NCBI GenBank assembly: GCA_029256685.1
Contig: JAQSXL010000001.1
Location: 1-40,071 of the forward strand
DNA length: 40,071 nucleotides
Source: Gammaproteobacteria bacterium
Lineage (GTDB): Bacteria; Pseudomonadota; Gammaproteobacteria; JAQSXL01
Reading direction: 5' to 3'
Shown here: positions 1 through 10,900 of the stretch, in pieces
Layout of the letters: every line of letters begins with the position of its first letter
How positions within the stretch are numbered: the stretch's first letter is position 1
Made by a program: the position numbers and the translations under genes
Notes under the pieces: generated by a model
The model's input: only the letters and a program-made list of their open reading frames with translations
Told to the model about the DNA's origin: nothing
Databases searched by the model: none

Positions 1-233
1 GGGCTTAACGTTGTAAAGCCATTATCCGTATCGGCCAAGGCCTTAGCTTTTAGACTCTCCTTACCAAACCGCTGGTTGAACAAGGTCGGCTGTTTAGCTT
101 TCCGGTTGACTACTTGGCTTGATTGAGCCTGTGCTTCTCTGCGGGTCATGGTAGACTCGGGTTGATGACGCAAAGTATGATAGGCATTTAATTGCTCAAC
201 GATAGGCTGAGACAGTATCGACCTGACAACGTA
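1..233 (-). pseudogene. Orphan (start-less) YD/Rhs toxin C-terminal cassette. Only the 5' part is in the window; it continues past the left edge.
   Basis: The minus-strand frame reads ...PIVEQLNAYHTLRHQPESTMTRREAQAQSSQVVNRKAKQPTLFNQRFGKESLKAKALADTDNGF... This is nearly identical to residues ~3907-3971 of the 4281-aa protein. An in-frame TAG (complement of 234-236) lies directly upstream, and no start codon precedes the homology. Confidence 0.6.
5..207. repeat. Copy A of a ~200-bp direct repeat (homology handle) shared with 2862-3064
   Basis: Manual alignment at a constant offset of 2857 nt gave about 10 mismatches and no indels over ~200 positions. Similarity ends abruptly at 208/3065. Confidence 0.9.
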
Positions 234-267
234 CTAATATCGGGCCAAGTTTTTAATCAAACCTATG

Positions 268-708
268 CTAATGAATTCCATAATAGTTAACTATCCAGAG
301 AAGTAATCCGCCACATGTGATAAAAAGTAGATAACTAATCATTACTGCAAAACTCCACATGATTTCTTTCCTAGTAAACAGCTCATAGGGATAATTAATT
401 TTTTGTAAAGCATATGCCTTAGGGTATATCTTGACTGTATTTGGATCTTTTCCAAACCATTTAATTAGACATTTTGCAAAGATATAAAAAGCAATTTCTG
501 TTTGGCGCATAAAATATTTACCACGAAACATCATGCGGTATTGAATCATATAATAACCTAGTTTCTGGCCAATCTTTCTCTCTATTTCTGGCACTATGAT
601 GCGATTAAATACCAGAGGAAAAAGGGTTACAATTATTAACATGCTTATAGTTCCTATGAAGCCAGTCACATGATATATAACCATTACAGTTAAATTTAAC
701 TTGTCCAT
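268..708 (-). CDS. Small polytopic membrane protein (about 4 hydrophobic helices); putative immunity partner of the upstream 133-aa protein
   Basis: 146-aa ORF. AAGGA lies 7 nt before the ATG, and the ORF starts 16 nt after the stop of the 133-aa ORF. Hydrophobic stretches include VMVIYHVTGFIGTISMLIIVTLFPLVF and WSFAVMISYLLFITCGGLLLWIV. The DNA is very AT-rich. Confidence 0.6.
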   Translation of the reverse strand: MDKLNLTVMVIYHVTGFIGTISMLIIVTLFPLVFNRIIVPEIERKIGQKLGYYMIQYRMMFRGKYFMRQTEIAFYIFAKCLIKWFGKDPNTVKIYPKAYALQKINYPYELFTRKEIMWSFAVMISYLLFITCGGLLLWIVNYYGIH

Positions 709-724
709 GGAATATCCTTAAAAA

Positions 725-1126
725 TTAATACTTATTACGTATTTCATGCTCAAATTTCTCAAAGCTATCTATAGCTTCTTTAGTTTCAACATACATAACG
801 TGACCAAATTTTTTGCCAAAGGCAGCCCCTGCCGAAGTTAAAGCGACAACTGTCGCAATAGCCACAGGCGTAAGTATTCCTGCTGAAATGCCTTCTTCGC
901 CAAAAGCAACAAGTCCACCGATGACTCCTCCCGCAACACCACCCACAATTCTACCTGTTTCCTCAAAGGCCGTTTGCAGTTTTGTACCCGATTCGGCTTG
1001 AAGAACATTGATGCCACCAAGTGCTATCTCTGCCGGCAATACAAGCCTACTGGCGCCCTCGATAAACTCTGCACCCTTCGCATATAGCCCATACTTTGCC
1101 GCTAATCCCGAGTACCTTTGATACAT
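725..1126 (-). CDS. Small Gly/Ala-rich glycine-zipper protein; possible membrane-active orphan toxin module
   Basis: 133-aa ORF with ETGRIVGGVAGGVIGGLVAFGEEGISAGILTPVAIATVVALTSAGAAFG. It weakly resembles the start of the main toxin's variable region (YAKGAEFIEGA versus FAGAEVIGGV; E-TG motif). It is followed by a coupled membrane-protein gene. Confidence 0.5.
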   Translation of the reverse strand: MYQRYSGLAAKYGLYAKGAEFIEGASRLVLPAEIALGGINVLQAESGTKLQTAFEETGRIVGGVAGGVIGGLVAFGEEGISAGILTPVAIATVVALTSAGAAFGKKFGHVMYVETKEAIDSFEKFEHEIRNKY

Positions 1127-1390
1127 TTCACCAGACTTTGCTACATCACTGATAATCTATAACTCGCACAGCACCATTTCGAGCATAAACACTATAGCGA
1201 TTATACTTCTCAATCACACTCAATCGTTCTATTCGCTGGCCAAAGTGTTCCAAAGTAGCTCCAATCGTCGTATTAGGGTCTTGAACTTCTGCAATAAAAG
1301 TATCCTTTAAGCGTGTTACTAAATTAAAAGACTATAAGGACCTGTGCCTAACGCATACTTAAAGCCAAATTAGATAATTTCTTACAAAAC

Positions 1391-1927
1391 TTAGCTATCA
1401 ATAAGTTGTATTAGTAATTCACTATCAATTTTATGTTCGTTTACAGGAATGAGATTAATTATCAAATTTGTTAATTTACTAAATATCAGTTCATTAGATG
1501 AAATCTCCGAAGAAGCACCGTAGCAAAAATTCAAGTTACCACTAAGCTTCAACTGACTATTTTTAGAAATAGATTCAATCTTATCGAAAATCGCTTTACA
1601 ATATTTCTCAGAAACGGATAAATATACAGGCTCTATTTTCTCAATTAGCGATTTCTTAAAACTATTTGCATTAAAATTACTGCCACATAAAACACTTACT
1701 TCAAGATTATTTGTTGGCATTGGTATATAATTAGCACCTAGTAATCCATATATATTTCTTCCACCACGTGGAATTAAGAGTTCTATAATTACTGTTTTAT
1801 TACAAAAATCATTATTTGAATGGCTAGAGTACTTAGCAATCTGTGGCTTATTACTTAATAATAAATCTTGATTAGGTTGTAACCATAATCTTATATTTCT
1901 TAAATAATCTAACTCAAATTCTAACAT
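1391..1927 (-). CDS. Putative cognate immunity protein of the YD/Rhs C-terminal toxin
   Basis: 178-aa ORF. The toxin stop is followed by GGAG and an ATG 11 nt later (TAAGGAGAAATAATATG). The DNA is extremely AT-rich (13 G+C in 1441-1500). I recognise no motif in it. Confidence 0.65.
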   Translation of the reverse strand: MLEFELDYLRNIRLWLQPNQDLLLSNKPQIAKYSSHSNNDFCNKTVIIELLIPRGGRNIYGLLGANYIPMPTNNLEVSVLCGSNFNANSFKKSLIEKIEPVYLSVSEKYCKAIFDKIESISKNSQLKLSGNLNFCYGASSEISSNELIFSKLTNLIINLIPVNEHKIDSELLIQLIDS

Positions 1928-1938
1928 ATTATTTCTCC

Positions 1939-4900
1939 TTAAAGTTCTGGGGTTATATGATGTAATTTAGGTTGATAGTTGCTCCAGAAATCAATCCATT
2001 TATTGTTGAAGGAGCCTGGCTCTATCGCATTCACCGCATTGATAACATCTGGGTGATAAACACTAAACGGTGAAACTTGATATTTACTTAGTGCAAACTG
2101 ATGAGCTTCAATATAGTTCATCCCTTTTGACATTTTAGTTGCCTCTGTAACCTCATGTATATAAAAACTAGCATCTGCACCAGTCACGGTCTTCCCAGAT
2201 CGTAATGCTTCATTTAGCCTTAATAACATTAATTCATTCTCTTTTACTGGACCAAATTTAGATAAGTGTTGAGTTACGAGGTCTAAGCCTTTTTGTGATA
2301 TACGAACAGCACTATTGGTAAGCTTACCTAACCCTTCGCCATCTGAGATACTTGTACTTAAATAGGCACCTGTTTTTTCTATACTGCTAAACAACCGAGG
2401 CCCAACCAATTTTATACCACCGGCTAAGCCACCGGGCATTACTAAATCAAACCCCACCTCCATAGCAGTTGTGCCAATATTATCCAGACCAAACTCATGC
2501 GCCGCTCGACCAAACGCAGTGGTCTCAGCTTCACCTGTCCATAAACATTTTAAGCCCGTTTCTATATGGTCAAGCCCTCTCAGCGCTGTGACGCCCCCCA
2601 CAGCAAGCCCTACACCAGTTTCAATCGTCAATATACCAAAACCAACTCCAGCAGCTGTTTGTACAACTCCGCCTATGACTTCAGCGCCTGCAAATATCCG
2701 ATTAGTAAAAGCTGCCCTTTTATTCGATGGTGACAAATCACTATTTTGTGAAGTTGCATAGATAGATTTATTTGATGCTGTCCAGATCATCTTACCTTCA
2801 TCTAGCATAGCCATTACATCATCGGACCTAATGGGTGTTAACAAACTCTCCTCATCAGGACTCTGCGTTATAAAGCCGTTATCCGTATCGGCCAACGCCT
2901 TAGCTTTTAGACTCTCCTTACTAAACCGCTGATTGAATAAAGTCGGCTGTTTAGCTTTCCGGTTGACTACTTGGCTTGATTGAGCCTGTGCTTCTCTGCG
3001 GGTCATGGTAGACTCGGGTTGGCGACGCAAAGTATGATAGGCATTTAATTGCTCAACAATAGGCGTTGCTAGCTTAATTCCTATCGCAGTACCTAGCGCT
3101 TGGGCGGCTATCAACTCTATATTAGGCTCGTGCTGTTGCATCACGCTGTCTACCATGCCTTGCACCAAGGGCTGGCTAATCGGCTGAGCGAGTTTATTCG
3201 TGATATTCAGCTCGTAGTTTAATATCTGGCCGCTTATCGCCGCCAAGACTTCACCAAAGTCAAAGTGCGGACTTAAACCCAGCGCTAGCTTGCTCAGCTG
3301 CTCCAGTATTACCACCTTGCCTACGCGGGATAGCTTCTCTGCAAGCTCAAGCCGCTCTCCCAGCTTAAGTTTATCTAAGCCTTGGACATCTAGCCCCGAG
3401 TTTAAACCGGCACTGGCCGCGCCCATGGCCATGTTGGAAAACGAAAACTGGTGTTGAGCCCCTAACCCTATCAACACCCCTTGGCTGGCCGCACTGGCCA
3501 ACGCACCTAGCGCCGCCGCCCTAAGTGCGTTAGTCATCACCGCTGCACCTTGTACCTGTGCCAACGCCGGCACCAAGACTGGCATGAAGTAGGCTATCAC
3601 TACCGTTATCACCACCTGAATCACAATCCCTAAAAAGCTGCTCCAAAAACCACCGTCAGGCTGGGGTGTTTCCAAGTGTGGATACAGATGTTCCAAAATG
3701 GTATTTAAAAATACCTGGTAGGCTATGTGATTACCCGCCCCATTGTGCATGGGGATTAAGGGCGGTACATTTAAAGCCAACCCCGGTGTCGGGGTCTCAT
3801 CCGCCCGCAAGCCATTGGCTTCTGCCAATAAACTCGCATAGCTATTGTCTCCATACACCTGCTGCGCTATACCACTAAAACTATCTCCTTCCATCACCAC
3901 ATAGCGCGTGACTCCCGTCCCTGTTCCAAGCTCGCTCACCCGCTGAATAAAATCCACCAGCTTCAATCGTCCCATCGCTTGCGGCAGTAAGTCTTTCGCC
4001 TTATAGTGCAAGACGGGTAAATGCCGTTGGTTATGAAGATACTGTTTAGGCTGAGGCATGTGCACCTCACTGGCTCGCCGCTTAGCTAATCTTATCAAAT
4101 CGGCCCATACTCGGTAACTGTTGCCATCCCACGGGTCCTTAGTGATTTCATAAGCGCCTATAGGCGCGCCATTCACTGTATAAAAATAATGGTGTTCCTT
4201 GATCCGGGGCGTCTCTTGCCAAATATTGTTGGTTTTGTTCGGCTGTAATATCTGCTTCTTAAATACCAAACCGTCCGAAGCCGCTTGGTATAGCACAACC
4301 TCTTGCGTTTTATTATCCTCAGCATAAACCCCAAGATTCGCATTTTGTGCCCCATTTGCATCATACAGCAATTGTGCTTGGTTATAGGGACTTGAATCAC
4401 CGTCACGTTCACGCCGTCCCCAGGTCTTGGTTAATTGTAGGCTGTCAAAACGAGCGTACTCATTATTCAGATAATCCCAAAAATCCACATCCTTTGTAAA
4501 ATAGTAGCTTACCTGTTGCTGCGGCTGACCGCTCGCCGTGAAGATCTTAAATACGCTAGAGCTTACCTTATTTTTATGATAGCCAAAAAAGCTATCCTCC
4601 CCCTCTTCTTGGTAATCATCAACTAGCCATTGGTTGGCGTTATAAACTAGCTTATGCTCCTTAATGCTTGCCACTTTAAGATAATCCATAACCTTGAGAT
4701 CAACCGCTTTAGAGTAGTAACGCTTTAGCAATCCCGATGAATAATACTCTCTTAAAGTGGTAGTTTGTAAAGGCAAATCAAGCAGAGTCGTGCTTAACTT
4801 ACCCTCATCATCATAGCCTATTAAGGTTTTTTTATAGGTCCAGTCTTTGTCGTATTCCTCTTCGCTAACCCGTACATCCCACTGGTAATTCAGTTTCTTG

Positions 4901-7900
4901 CCTTGGCCATTGGTGATAACGATATTGCCATTTTGCAACACACCGCCATCAATGATGGCACGATTGTTGGCATCGAATCGATTCCAGGTGGATTGAGTCA
5001 TCACCGGCGCTTTATTTTCTCCCGGATAGAGGAAGGCCGATACATGCATGCGATTACCGCACGCATCATACCCCGTAGCCAACAGCATCATGGTGTCTAA
5101 GGTCCACGATTCTCGTCCTAAAGCATCAAGCCGGGTCACGACTCGGCGCAATTGAACCTCACCCTGTTTGACTTCAACGCCTATACGTCGGTTTTCACTG
5201 TCTAAGCTATAGTAGGTACTTTTACCCTGTACCCTATCATGTTCTTCGTACAATCGACCCGCACGGTATACCCGTTCTATGACTTGATTGGGCGTTGGCA
5301 GTGAGACGGGTTGATAGCAGTCTGCCTGTATGATAATAGGTTTTCTGTCCCGCTCTCTGATTTCAAAGTCTTTGACCGTTTGCTTAAGTAGCAGATAGGT
5401 GCCGTGCTGAGCATCGCGGGACCCTTGCTTAATCAGCTGATACTTGTAATCGTAAACGTACTGATATATACCGCTCAAACTGCCATGTTCCTGTAGGTTG
5501 CCAAAATAGTCGCGCGTCCAATACTGGCTGCCATCATTGTTTATTTGCCGCACCAACTGGTGGTTGCGATCGTGCTCCGTTACGGTTACATCTCCCTCCG
5601 GTAAAATAAGAGCCAGCACATCGTACTTTGGAGTATAGCGATAGCGGGTCTGCTGCAGCTCTGCATTGATATCGGTGATACGCAAATTGCATTCATTAAT
5701 GGTAAAACTATGAATATTGTTTAAGGGCGAGATAAACGCTGTTATGTTATTGGCATTATCAAACGCCTGCCGCCATATTTTTCCGCGAGCATCGGTATAC
5801 CTTGGCACCCGGCCTAAAGCATCAAATATCTGCTTACGTTTTATAGTACCGTCCGCTAACACATGAGTTAACTGTTGACCAGCCCTATCCACAAAGTAGG
5901 CCTGGGTATGACCACGCGGATCAACCTCGGCTATCAACATACCTCTAAGGTTATAACCACTGCGAGTAGTCGGCGATTGATGGCTGAGCGTACCATTTTC
6001 GGCTACAACCTCGACCTCGGACTGAACCCGCTTTATGACCTGATTGAAGACATTGAAACGCTGCTGGGTTTGATGGCCTAGGCTATCGGTTTCCGTCGTC
6101 ACGTTGTCCCAACTGTCGTATTCAAATTGGTGCATGGGTTGAATCAGCTTGGATTTAGGCTCAGAAAGATCATGGCTTGCTAAGACATAGCCATTTAACT
6201 CAAGCTTAAATACGCCATTCGTCTCGCCTAGCTTAAACGGGTAACTCCCTAACGGCAGATCGCTGACATCCAAGACAACGCCTTGTTGAGTGACACCCAT
6301 AGCCTGCAGGTTTTTCCAGCATGCCAGCCTATCGTATGAGGTATCCCAAAATTGCAGCGTGGGTTGAGCGGTTTGTCCCAGGATGGGCGTAATATAGCTT
6401 ACAATTCTATCGGGAAAGGGAATAACGGTTATTAGATTTTCTGTAGTAGGCACTTCTTGAGAGTTGAGCGTAGGCATAGTCTGATAAAGTGGCAAGCTAT
6501 CTTGCTCATTGAGTAACAATGCAACGGAAATCGACTTGACTTGGTTAAGCTTATGGGCAAATTCGCTGTTACAGATAAGCTCCTTCCCTTTATCATCTTT
6601 ATAATGACCCTTATCCGTGCCCGGCCGAATGATATCCTCCTGAATGTACTCTTGCTCGTCGTCGGCGGTGTATACACAAGTTAAGGCGATAGGCAAGGTT
6701 TGGTAGCACTCGGGCACAGACCAGATCACCTGGACGTGATTGTCTAAGGCTAACATTTGGATAGAGGCTTGGATTTCTCGCGCCAAAGGATTTATCGAAG
6801 GCGTAGCGGTATAAATGGTAAAGGGTAAACTCAGCTCATCAACCGCATCACGCTTCGCATTTTCTGTAAGGCTTTGCCGCATCGAGACCGGATTTTTCTT
6901 AAGTGTGCCAATAGGTATAACCCGATACTCGCCCGAGGCTTGATTAGCAAGGTTGATATACCACTCGTTGGTTTGGGGATCTTGCTTGACTGCCACCTCA
7001 TCCAACTTTTTGCCATCTTGCCATAATTCAACCGCCTTAAGTTGCTCGGTATTGCCGCTGAAATAGACCAGGTGATCATGCCTCACTTCGGTAACCAAAT
7101 GTTGACTACGCTTGGTATGAAAGGTATTGATTTGGGTAAAACCTTGCGTGCGGTATTGCGGTAATGTGTCCAATTGGCCGGTAATGGGATTGCGTAAATA
7201 ATAGTTGATTTCATACTCGTATACGTCGCAGCTCAATTCGCTAACATCCACTCCACAGCGATAAGCACTGCGTTTGATGACTAAATCGGTTTTAAGTCCG
7301 GGACTGCCTTTGGGCCACAGACTCATTGTTGCAGCCTCGACGTTGGTTTCCTGCGGCTGCGTCCAGCTCAGCGTTAGCTTACCAAGCTCAGGATAAGCCT
7401 TACCAAACAGGATGGTCAGTGGAATGTTAAGCGGATGCGCCGGATCGGTTTCCCAATAGGCTGGCGTGCCCTGCGCGATGACGCGGCCCGCATTATCCCG
7501 CCAAGTGCTATGCTTTTCTAATTTTTCAACCGGCCAGCTCAATAGGCCTGCTTGTTGGTCGTAGCTTACCTTTGCTATATTCTCGGTCGCTGAGCGCAAT
7601 TCAGCGGTTTTCAGGCCTCGCAGATCATAGAGCTGGATTAGGTGTACACCCTTGCTAAGATTCTGGGCCCAACTACGATTTTGCACGTCACGGTGTTGAT
7701 AAGCCGGCCAGACATTATTGCCGGGTCCTTCCGCCACCACATTGCCGAAAATGTCGTACGCCTGCTGTGTGATTTCATAGCTGTTGTTATCACGCAACAC
7801 CTCGGTATAGTAAACTCGGTTACAGGCATCACGGCGCAGGCGCTTTTCATCGATGTGAGTGCTAAGCTTATACTCCGTGCGGCTAAGTTGATCCCAATGC

Positions 7901-10900
7901 GTGTATAGATACCAGTTGCGCGCCGGCTCTCGCCTGGGATCGTAGGTGTAGCCGTGCAGGTTGCCTCTCGCATCTTGCTGATACTGGGCTAACCCTCGAT
8001 TATCCATCAGACTCAGCTCAGTTTGATCCTGAGCCGTACTGGCAATAGGAGTAGGCAGCTGATCAACCGTAGCCTTTGCCGTCCCTTGGGCAAAACGGGT
8101 GACCATCACTACTTGACCATGGGCATTCACACCCCAATAGCTTAAAGGGATGATGGTAATAGGTTTATCGGCCTCGTCCCTTGACTCGCGGGCCACGCCT
8201 GTCTCGCCTATCTTGTGACCCTGAGCATTATAATACCGATATTCGGCGCTTTCGTCCGGATAGGTGATACTAATCAGCTGACGGTGAGCATTATAGCTAA
8301 ACGAAGTAGTAAGATTTAGCTTGGGTTTATCATGCATGCTGGGGATATTATTCGAGTCCAGGATCAGCTCCTGGACCACAATGCCTACCTTAATTTCAGC
8401 GATCTTGTCGCCTAGATTATTATAATCGAATTCAGAGACACGGTCTTCGTCAGAAATTTCAACGGCAGCTTCTAAGGCCGCTAAACTCATGCCGGGCAAA
8501 GGTGGCTTAGCCAGCGACCTGGCGAACTCTATTCGTTTGATCGCCTTGGCAAACGCATTGCGATAGTATCGTTCGACTATAAAATCAGGGTTAACCTTAG
8601 CCAGCAGATTACCCTGCTTATCACGCCAATAGAGGGTTTGAGCCCAGCGGTCGTGTTTAGGACTCAGCAGTTCCTCTTCTAACACGCGCTCGTTAAAAGC
8701 ATTATAGTCATAGCGGGTAATGGAATGCGCCATGCCGTATTCTTCTTGCTTACCCGGCAGATAGTAAAACACCTGTGGTTTTTCTATGCGTTTGAGATTG
8801 CTGACCCTATCAAACGCATAATTAACTGTTTGGTCATTAGCCGAGGGTTTTACCTGCTGCTCCATAACGGCCAAGGGAATACCCGACATTGTGTAGGGAG
8901 CCAAGTCTATGGCTAGGGGTAGAGAATAGCGGGTGACCTGGGTTTTATTGCCAAAGCTATTATAGCTATTTTGGGTAACCGCTTTTTCAGCGTTGATTAG
9001 ATAAACAGGGCGGCTTGCCGCATCATAGACCGTGAACGACCAACATCCGGCCTCATCGCAGTTTGCCACTTCCAGCCCTTTACCATTGTATACCTTTTGA
9101 GTGGTTAAAATCATTCGCCGCTCTGGCCTTTGGCTAAAACTAGCCGCTTGCTCTGGGTCATCGACGGCAATGTCCTCTATTCGGGTATCACTCAGTTGAT
9201 GGGAGGCGTTATAGTGCAACGTCATCCGACGCGCTTCCTGGGTATTAGCCGCTTTGGTAATGCAAATGACATTGCCTACCTTATCGTAATCCTTATGCGT
9301 CTCTATGGCCAAATTGGTTTGTTGATGGCTAAGCTTGTCGTTCTGCCATTCAACAATAGTCACCGGTATGGCTGGAGCAATCTCCTTTTGTATACGTTGC
9401 GCTCTATCTAACTGATAGAACCAAGCTTGCAGCATGCGATCGGTGTGCTGAATAATATTGTTCAAGGCATCGCGCTGGTAATGGTCTTGCTTTTGCTCGG
9501 CATCTATCTCAGATTCGATTCTATCGGCGGCATCGTAAACCGTTTTGTCTATCTGTGCATTATCCTGGGTCGGGGTTAAATCTTGCAGCAGCTCTACCAA
9601 GGCCGAGTAATCGCTGGGTACAGAGATAGGCTGTTTAAAACGGCTGGTTTGGTAAAGCTTGTTATTTTCGTCGTGATCATACTTCGTCACGGCACCGAGT
9701 GGATCAACCTCAAACTGCAAGCGTCCTGCCGAATCATAAACGTGGTAATGAGTTCTGTCCTGCAAGACATCACGCTGCAATTTAGCCACAAGTTGTGCGG
9801 GAGTCAACTGCGCTAAAGCCGCTGGCTCGGCAACGGGTATGGCGTAAACGGTTTTAGTGATCAAGCGATTGAGTTTATCAAAGACCTGTTGGGTCACTAC
9901 GCCTGTGGCACTCAAGGTAAAAAGTGCCTGACCCAAGGCGTCCACCACATAGTAATTTATTCGATCCAGGCTGGGGTTAGCCAAGGTTTTTACCCGTTGT
10001 TCCAGGGCGGCGGTGGTTAAACCAGCCAGCTCTTTTGGCTCTAAACCCTGAGCATAATTAAGGATTTGAAGCTTATGTCCAGCCAAATTGTAGCGGGTTT
10101 CTTGCACTACCCCCAGTCCATTGATGCTAAAACGCGCCTGCTGGCGTGCATCATAAAACAGCCAGGTTTGCTGATCCTGGTTGCACGGCTGGATTAACTT
10201 AGCCACCTCGGCTAAATTAGTCTGTTCGCTAAGCTTGCCCAGAGCTATTTTTTGTTCATAGTGCAGGGTAGTTTGCAATAAACCATTGGCGTGGTAACGC
10301 CATTCTTGCACGGCTCCCGTGGGTTTCACACAAAAACGCTTTTGCCCTAGCAAATCATAAAAATAATGGGTTTTTTGCCCATTGGCATCAAGGTGAACCA
10401 CCACATCGTCTGCCTTATTCAACACTTGCTGGGTGGCAATGGCCAAGGCATTAGGGCGGGATGGGGTAACAGGATCAACGGTATCCCCCAGCTTGCGGCC
10501 CCAGGCATCGTATTGCAAGGTTTGATAAAATTGGTCCGGGTTATTAACATCGCCCTTTTGCACCCAGATTACTTGCTTTAGACCATTGTAGCCGCGCGTG
10601 GTCAGCAGGTTTAAACCGGGTTTATTTTCGCTGTCGGGATCAAACGTGCAGCTTAGCTCTAAACCGCGCTTATCGTAGGTTTTTTTGGTATGTACACGCC
10701 GTGGGTTTGTGGTTTCTACCACGTCACCGAAGTTATCGCGGACATAGACAGTACTTAGTTTTAAACCGTTTACGTCATCGATATGCAAGATCTGACGGCC
10801 AAGCACATCGTAACCAAACTCATTGCGCAGCCCCTGCTCGCGCTGTTCAGCCAGATGCCAGCCCATGCGGTTGTATTTATTGGTTGTTTTGTGTCCAAGT

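Follow-up and report, generated by a model that had tools for sequence, protein, structure and literature searches.

The stretch of DNA analyzed here (the window, 40,071 nucleotides (nt) of a gammaproteobacterial contig) carries on its minus strand a giant gene for a predicted YD-repeat polymorphic toxin of 4281 amino acids (aa), with a gene for a leucine-rich repeat (LRR) protein directly upstream and a putative immunity gene directly downstream. An earlier note, made from the letters alone, had pointed to nt 3399-3912, which correspond to residues 3625-3796 of the YD protein, as holding a LysM domain and membrane-type helices between the YD shell and the toxin, an unusual layout for a YD toxin. 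All peptides quoted in that note are found in this one reading frame where the note had put them. We find that this layout is real and family-wide. In the relatives of the window protein a conserved module of ~330 aa, made up of a LysM domain, a YPxLETPQP joint, a hydrophobic helix, Ala/Gly/Gln-rich helices and a closing helical region, occupies the position at which classical Rhs proteins have their core end.

A giant YD protein that lacks the Rhs core end

The YD character of the protein is clear from its matches to Pfam RHS_repeat (E 7.8e-58) and TIGR01643 (E 6.9e-32), and ~3500 of its residues are YD sequence, several times the length of a normal shell. The junction between shell and tail (residues 2875-3790) was modelled together with eleven homologues in AlphaFold2 (AF2), with a predicted template-modelling score of 0.61. 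Unbroken YD-type strands run up to residue ~3560 at a predicted local distance difference test score (pLDDT) of 70-93; the last YD-like strand quoted in the earlier note (residues 3531-3550, nt 4135-4194) lies near their end. They are followed by a 64-residue stretch at pLDDT 26-36, then by a LysM fold and then by helices of low confidence. In Foldseek the beta part of the model (residues 2875-3560) resembles Rhs cocoons, TcB-TcC and teneurins (E 1e-30 to 1e-17), with Tse15, RhsA, Tse5 (8cp6) and TcB-TcC as partners at E 1e-30. The model is a partial shell with low Foldseek TM-scores (0.2-0.39), figures that say nothing on shell closure. Pfam, TIGR01643 and the structural comparison all recover the YD/RHS-repeat beta sheet of classical Rhs/TcC toxins.

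What follows the shell is not a Rhs core. Neither DPxG[LWFIMV] nor PxxxxDPxG occurs anywhere in the 4281 residues by regular expression, and TIGR03696, the profile of the Rhs-associated core, has no match at E<=1 in the YD protein. TIGR03696 is also missing from the last ~1000 aa of nine family members. A profile of the family tail (residues 3380-3720) aligned by hhalign with a profile of ten classical cores gave a probability of 0.1%. As a positive control, we used classical Rhs proteins that share the toxin domain of the window protein. In these, TIGR03696 was found at E 1e-16 to 1e-25 and ended exactly at DPxGL, and the arrangement '...RFLTRDPIGF...(22)...DPLGL' precedes the toxin. The combination of TIGR03696, PxxxxDPxGL and a catalytic Asp pair was not found in the window protein. 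The Rhs-associated core, an aspartyl autoprotease ending in PxxxxDPxGL, is absent from this clade, and the failure of the earlier note to see such a motif by eye is borne out by three kinds of search whose controls work. Additionally, an alternative protease signature was not found in the module, since the 20-sequence alignment contains no invariant His, Cys or Asp beyond the LysM domain.

At its other end the protein begins with FPYxPxxGxGLGxSYSSxTQ, which is conserved across the family and carries no database annotation. Pfam and NCBIfam searches of the whole protein (E<=1) detected no PAAR, VgrG-binding, SpvB/TcB or Sec-signal element, and no DUF1795 chaperone or PAAR gene was found in the protein or its neighbours. 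The YD sequence is interrupted by a non-YD middle region (residues 2443-2881, nt ~6142-7458, minus strand), which by eye looks like Ig-like repeats. The window protein has it, as do most relatives, but it is missing in P0003 and P0129; P0002 and P0003 carry other inserts instead which, again by eye, look like cysteine-protease domains of OTU or CE-clan type.

The LysM-helix module and its family

Residues 3551-4281 were searched exhaustively with HMMER against 1.84 billion representative proteins, and the matches fell into two groups. Those of the first are confined to the last ~135 residues, the toxin domain, and occur in proteins of every size. Those of the second cover residues ~3625-3950 and occur in proteins of 3903-5433 aa, equally far from the C-terminus, as well as in shorter fragments and cassettes. 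At least 12 giant YD proteins of that length have the module in the corresponding place. In BLASTP comparisons twelve giants follow the window protein collinearly (26-40% identity), starting at residue ~1 and continuing to ~3850-3960; the end points lie between residues 3846 and 3963. A constant body is joined in this way to a sharply variable C-terminus, and past ~3850-3960 eleven of the twelve are unrelated to the window protein. Similarity to P0002 takes in the Gly-rich pre-toxin segment and ends at residue 4144, and that to P0092 runs almost to the end, to residue 4246. Compared across these sequences, the module proves to be a pre-toxin region conserved throughout a family and not an accident of one protein.

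All family members come from metagenome-assembled genomes (MAGs) or metagenomes and are annotated at most as 'YD repeat-containing protein' or 'hypothetical protein [Pseudomonadota bacterium]'. Word-indexed searches with the module, a module profile and the N-terminal 600 aa returned nothing useful or fragments only. A contig scan of the GTDB species representatives with the single protein found no relative, and a scan with a four-sequence alignment found just a LysM match in a Clostridia MAG; a metagenome scan yielded one short relative (L002). We found no description in the literature of a YD toxin family with a LysM and transmembrane-helix module in place of the core, and we regard these giant YD-repeat polymorphic toxins as a clade not described before.

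The LysM domain that opens the module is real. On an isolated segment of 261 aa, PF01476 scores 25.3 bits (E 1.5e-5), above its cut-off of 20.9, and it scores 24.4 bits on a second isolated segment; in the full-length protein the score is 20.2 bits, just below the cut-off. A profile of 20 homologous modules matched LysM structures in the PDB at E 5.8e-10 to 1e-6, the best being Kbp (5.8e-10), followed by a Thermus endopeptidase (1.6e-7) and LysM subunits of contractile-injection baseplates (~1e-6). In the AF2 model of the module, residues 1-50 form the beta-alpha-alpha-beta fold (E3-6, H13-21, H24-33, E47-50) at pLDDT 85-96. This part superposes on LysM structures with a root-mean-square deviation of 1.6-2.5 A, while the Foldseek E values, obtained with the whole 281-residue module as query, are weak (0.1 or worse). 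LysM is detected by Pfam in five of nine relatives. The family consensus is YVVxxGDTFxxIAxxxYGDxxxAxxIAxANG...GxxLxxPQ, and D11, G22, G45 and P51 are invariant in the 20-sequence alignment. Sequence and fold both identify PF01476 where the earlier note had placed a good LysM match.

The joint after the LysM domain is Pro-rich in the relatives, and P79 is nearly invariant in the alignment. The LYPHLETPQP motif is exact in P0002, P0017 and P0119; the family consensus is LYPxLxTPQP(P), often lengthened to a poly-Pro and basic stretch.

Next comes the strongly hydrophobic helix. The maximum of the 19-residue Kyte-Doolittle average, at 3710-3751, is the highest in the protein, and residues 1-3500 never exceed 1.35; a simple Hessa sum gives ~0 kcal for residues 3716-3734. 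When the protein was shuffled, Kyte-Doolittle maxima were 1.88 +/- 0.27 with a top value of 3.12, so the peak in the single sequence is not decisive. A peak of 1.7-3.4 is present at the same alignment column in 20 of 20 homologues, and because of this conservation we consider the helix more than a chance feature. In the relatives it spans ~20 residues and ends in an 'APE' break, for which the window protein has 'MPV'; P112 is nearly invariant.

The Ala/Gly-rich stretches that follow (residues 3746-3776 and 3786-3797) behave differently. They are marginally hydrophobic, with Kyte-Doolittle values of 1.4-1.6 and Hessa sums of +3.9 to +8 kcal, and are better called small-residue amphipathic helices. 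Their consensus is AAxxAALAxAAxQGVAIGLGxQxxFS, in which Q145 is invariant and F157 and S158 are nearly so. Of the membrane-type helices proposed in the earlier note, one is clearly of transmembrane grade, whereas the Ala/Gly-rich segments are amphipathic or marginal. The earlier note also stopped short of the end of the module, which extends as conserved helices to residue ~3912, with the variable cassette starting only after ~3960-3990, where collinearity with the relatives has ended, about 50-100 residues past the module. This closing region contains the invariant residues Q206 and G213, has an alignment consensus of AAxALGxxIG near its end, and is modelled by AF2 as helices of low confidence. 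The module as a whole matched no known pore-former family in Pfam or the PDB. Positions of all features are collected in Table 1.

Table 1. Features of the giant YD gene and its surroundings (window positions; residues of the 4281-aa protein)
Feature	Start..end (nt)	Strand	Residues	Remarks
LRR_6 protein, upstream partner	14806..18090	-		1094 aa; Pfam LRR_6 E 3.3e-34
Giant YD-repeat gene, predicted polymorphic toxin	1939..14784	-	1-4281	single open reading frame, GTG start; RHS_repeat match
Last YD-type beta strands	4105..4194	-	3531-3560	AF2 strands at 3541-3560 (segment residues 667-676, 680-686)
Linker from shell to LysM	3913..4104	-	3561-3624	predicted disordered; no Rhs core
LysM domain	3763..3909	-	3626-3674	Pfam, family profile, AF2
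Joint	3655..3762	-	3675-3710	conserved PxxIPxxN, short helix, LYPHLETPQP (nt 3658-3687)
Strongly hydrophobic, transmembrane-competent helix	3553..3648	-	3713-3744	Kyte-Doolittle 2.66
Ala/Gly/Gln-rich amphipathic helices	3394..3549	-	3746-3797	QGVxIGLGxQxxFS
Conserved helical region closing the module	3049..3393	-	3798-3912	QLxEMAxGLRxxFD ... AAQALGxxIG
Polar low-complexity linker with constant/variable junction	2710..3048	-	3913-4025
Gly-rich hydrophobic pre-toxin segment	2395..2709	-	4026-4130	GLDHIETGLKxLWTG; variable cassette
C-terminal toxin domain (predicted)	1942..2394	-	4131-4281	signature GADASFYxHExxEA
Putative cognate immunity protein	1391..1927	-		178 aa; no hydrophobic segment
Decayed orphan toxin and immunity reading frame	257..1330	-		71% nt identity to L009 (end of main gene plus immunity gene)

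Exchange of toxin cassettes and the upstream partner

The C-terminal domain was found in 120 of the 150 best representative matches, also behind canonical Rhs cores. Its invariant residues are H, N, R, D, FY, HE, E and H. Searches with the C-terminal pieces gave no toxin or pre-toxin family in Pfam or NCBIfam and nothing in the PDB, and the domain probably represents a widespread unannotated toxin family. The segment before it, with a Kyte-Doolittle value of 1.77, is shared with P0002 and P0092 only. It has no Pfam match; it is like a pre-toxin TG region in idea, but PF14449 (PT-TG) was not matched.

Base composition changes across this end of the gene. GC content is 0.48-0.57 over the module but only 0.37 over the toxin and 0.26-0.31 over the immunity gene, a drop which fits horizontally exchanged cassettes. 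Over window positions 1-2400, which hold the toxin, the immunity gene and the orphans, it is 0.26-0.37, against 0.45-0.57 in the body of the gene. Near-identical copies of the 178-aa open reading frame (ORF) occur on other contigs.

A second locus, L009, is informative in this respect. It contains a different giant YD gene, whose LysM-helix module is only ~24% identical to that of the window and which ends in a Gly-rich hydrophobic C-terminus followed by a 148-aa ORF with two transmembrane segments. After that pair stands a degenerate copy of the window sequence from residue 3834 onward. This orphan corresponds to window positions 1371-3285 at 83% nt identity over 1.9 kb and comprises the tail of the module, the polar linker, the pre-toxin segment, the toxin and the 178-aa ORF. 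The reverse is seen in the window, where the decayed orphan matches the last part of the main gene of L009 together with the immunity gene that follows it. The orphan toxin is frameshifted, leaving a Gly-rich hydrophobic ORF (725-1126), and the orphan immunity ORF (268-708) is intact, encoding 146 aa with two transmembrane helices. A paralogous relationship between ORF 725-1126 and the pre-toxin segment of the window protein was rejected (BLASTP E 0.024); the ORF is clearly homologous to the C-terminus of the L009 main protein. Farther along L009, positions 10694-11733 hold another toxin-like ORF (162 aa) and an Imm53 gene, and the array continues with remnants matching window residues 3544-3603 and 3632-3648, making it a multi-cassette orphan array.

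The orphan cassettes begin inside the closing helical region (residue 3834 or 3877). Three further short ORFs, which come from other samples (P0013, P0020 and P0040), begin likewise in the last helices of the module, at 63-80% identity, and have different C-termini; P0020 and P0040 diverge past residue ~3985-3996. About 9 of 23 relatives have a basic-xx-(L/F)F motif 42-68 residues past the module (KQPTLFNQRF in the window protein, nt ~2884-2964, residues ~3941-3967). Its position near the point where the orphans diverge is a lead only, and the motif may mark a junction or a processing site. One short ORF pair is followed by a complete LysM-to-toxin cassette (P0127), and long orphans of this type indicate that the module can travel with the toxin. 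The first ORF downstream of the giant gene differs at every locus (178, 148, 126, 227 and 160 aa), which indicates that the constant module has no dedicated immunity protein.

At both the window and L009, toxin and immunity gene are inherited together and the orphans retain a piece of the constant region. From these sequence comparisons, we conclude that this is a polymorphic toxin family in which the LysM-helix module, with the polar linker, is the constant region beside the exchange junction. The genetics of the locus are those of Rhs and CdiA loci.

Upstream, the LRR protein is of the RNI type, has hydrophobic N-terminal helices and a C-terminal transmembrane anchor, and lies 21 nt from the giant gene. 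A homologous LRR gene stands directly upstream in all four loci for which upstream sequence exists (the window, L011, L012 and the P0140 contig), on the same strand, 12-160 nt from the giant gene and encoding 1094-1376 aa. The homology is full-length and extends beyond the repeats, and in the window and in L011 the protein terminates with a strong transmembrane helix. The LRR protein looks like an obligatory partner of the giant YD protein. Elsewhere in the window are a gene for a 678-aa protein with a eukaryote-type U-box domain (32147-34183, minus strand) and an IS-type DDE transposase (36917-38104, minus strand). The U-box, the RNI-type LRR and a DUF5630 protein in L011 suggest a host-associated, Legionellales-like gammaproteobacterium, a guess from gene content only.

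Possible function of the module and comparison with known systems

We give somewhat better than even chances to the proposal that the conserved module is the delivery end of the protein, serving in glycan docking and in membrane insertion or translocation without proteolytic release. The module would lie outside the YD shell. Its LysM domain would dock the protein on a glycan layer, most likely peptidoglycan, and its hydrophobic and amphipathic helices would enter the membrane next to that layer, so that whichever C-terminal toxin is attached would be carried across that membrane or held at it. Unlike in classical Rhs and TcC proteins, the toxin would not be released by proteolysis. The favoured site of action would be the inner membrane of a target cell, because the immunity protein of the current toxin looks cytosolic and no dedicated immunity partner goes with the module. 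An immunity protein with no hydrophobic segment suggests that the toxin probably acts in the cytoplasm and must cross the inner membrane. Long orphan cassettes, which carry the module along with the toxin, are likewise consistent with action in a target cell.

Several points weigh against this proposal. The helices are modelled by AF2 at low confidence (pLDDT 42-73) that fixes neither the number of spans nor their topology, and only one segment reaches transmembrane-grade hydrophobicity. In many relatives the helix is flanked by basic residues on the side towards LysM; if the producer's own machinery inserts the helix, the positive-inside rule would put LysM in the cytoplasm, a poor fit to both simple models. 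A LysM fold is no proof of glycan binding, as Kbp (K+ sensing) and the baseplate LysM subunits (protein-protein contacts) are among the best matches. No signal peptide or PAAR/VgrG-type domain that would point to a route of export was detected. Hydrophobic cargo can sit inside Rhs shells, as in Tse5-CT and the C-terminal domain of BiTLP (PMC13018210). Finally, the function is read from sequence and models of uncharacterised family members.

Of the three other readings that we weighed, the most credible, although still unlikely, is an anchor in the envelope of the producer. The helix would sit in the producer's own membrane with LysM on its own peptidoglycan, displaying the YD body or the toxin, by analogy with Streptococcus suis WapA, whose LysM repeats anchor it in the wall, and with the type II membrane anchor of teneurins. 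The LRR partner would be in the same membrane. Envelope anchors typically consist of one strong transmembrane helix next to a Pro-rich spacer and a domain that binds peptidoglycan, the conserved partner has a C-terminal transmembrane anchor and further hydrophobic helices, and WapA-CT1 is a known case of a YD toxin anchored to the wall of its producer by LysM (PMC12704120). Yet ~3700 residues precede the helix with no N-terminal signal peptide, so that export of the LysM side is unexplained, and an anchor placed between carrier and toxin would put the toxin across the membrane from LysM. That long orphan cassettes take the module with the toxin is expected of a delivery element and not of a housekeeping anchor. 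As between translocation in the target cell and anchoring in the producer, the evidence is not decisive.

Considerably less probable is that the entire tail after the YD strands is unfolded cargo inside an unusually large YD cocoon, which would merely shield the hydrophobic stretch from solvent, as happens in Tse5 and in a teneurin-like protein of Bacillus. C-terminal domains containing transmembrane segments are known inside the shells of Rhs and teneurin-like proteins (TLPs) (PMC13018210), Tse5 (8cp6) is among the Foldseek matches, and the YD sequence of the window protein is several times that of a normal shell. However, the tail measures 731 aa (~80 kDa), against ~15-30 kDa for known cargoes (PMC13018210), and no cleavage motif is present for release. 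A LysM domain that is predicted to be well folded and conserves its canonical positions would be pointless if permanently unfolded, and AF2, which is weak evidence here, does not thread the tail into the sheet. Because the tail far exceeds known cargoes and AF2 predicts a disordered linker before a folded LysM, simple encapsulation is unlikely, in agreement with the earlier note. The least probable reading, that the module is itself a constant pore-forming toxin and the protein has two toxic activities, can appeal to the resemblance of its small-residue-rich amphipathic helices and invariant Gln to glycine-zipper pore formers and to the Gly-rich hydrophobic window orphan and L009 main toxins, whose membrane immunity proteins imply that membrane toxins are in use in the family, but the module is not C-terminal, matches no known pore former and has no conserved immunity gene, the downstream ORFs varying by locus.

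By its genetics and its YD body the protein appears to be a polymorphic toxin, yet it fits none of the classical Rhs/TcC core-end, teneurin-like or prePAAR types. We regard the layout as well established and the family as new; what the module does is inferred. Like classical Rhs, TcC and WapA proteins, it has a YD-repeat beta sheet and ends in a variable toxin, with an immunity gene and orphan cassettes located behind it, and the very same toxin domain is found in classical Rhs proteins. Unlike them, it is three to four times larger, has no Rhs-associated core or aspartyl protease motif, carries the LysM-helix module and polar linker in the place of DPxGL, shows no detectable PAAR, VgrG, SpvB or signal-peptide N-terminus, and has a conserved LRR membrane partner.

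Effectors of the type VI secretion system with transmembrane domains (prePAAR class, Tse6, class I Rhs) and the CdiA-CT/colicin entry domains take a toxin across the target inner membrane. With prePAAR effectors the window protein shares the concept of hydrophobic helices built into a toxin. The transmembrane domains of that class are N-terminal, flank PAAR and need Eag chaperones, whereas the helices of the giant protein lie between carrier and toxin and have no sequence similarity to them. Indeed, the prePAAR, PAAR, N-terminal transmembrane and Eag/DUF1795 elements were all missing, and the sole strong hydrophobic helix is that at 3713-3744. Phage tape-measure proteins also combine a peptidoglycan-binding or -degrading domain with hydrophobic helices for crossing the cell envelope. 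This analogy is functional only, as their sequences are unrelated and they carry neither toxin nor YD repeats.

Teneurins also have large YD shells, and the C-terminal domains of the metazoan proteins, unreleased and outside the shell, are the nearest precedent for an uncleaved external tail. In bacterial TLPs the Rhs core cleavage site is kept and a C-terminal domain of ~15 kDa is enclosed in a 44,000 A3 cavity (PMC13018210). The giant protein has a weak, YD-level sequence match to PDB 9ifo (E 9.7e-4), but no NHL, FN-plug, TTR or TEN_YD-shell match (E<=1), and the superfold of FN-plug, NHL propeller and YD-shell was not found. LysM was listed by Zhang et al. in 2012 among the accessory adhesion domains of some polymorphic toxins (PMC3482391), and S. 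suis WapA-CT1 is a 3158-aa YD toxin with LysM for cell-wall anchoring (PMC12704120). The latter differs in that its LysM repeats are N-terminal, after a Sec signal, its Rhs-associated core is canonical, and it is Gram-positive with sortase and SecF-like partners.

Rhs and YD toxins are at present explained by a single mechanism, in which a closed cocoon has an aspartyl autoprotease at the PxxxxDPxGL core end and releases a small unfolded toxin. In this family the YD body and the cassette-swapping genetics are retained and the core end is exchanged for LysM and membrane helices, which implies that the YD scaffold can couple to a different delivery logic. The module is a defined conserved unit with a recognition signature (LysM ... 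YPxLETPQP ... APE ... QGVxIGLGxQxxFS ... QLxEMAxGLRxxFD ... AAQALGxxIG), by which giant toxins labelled 'YD repeat-containing protein' or 'hypothetical' can be recognized together with their unannotated toxin and immunity repertoires. A bolder and distinctly more doubtful idea is that the module and the transmembrane-anchored LRR partner form a new two-gene delivery system, in which a giant YD protein with exchangeable toxins and no autoproteolysis brings a self-contained device for crossing the envelope. Such a system might be specific to Legionellales-like intracellular or amoeba-associated bacteria and would be a third solution beside the aspartyl-protease cocoon of Rhs proteins and the entry domain of CdiA.

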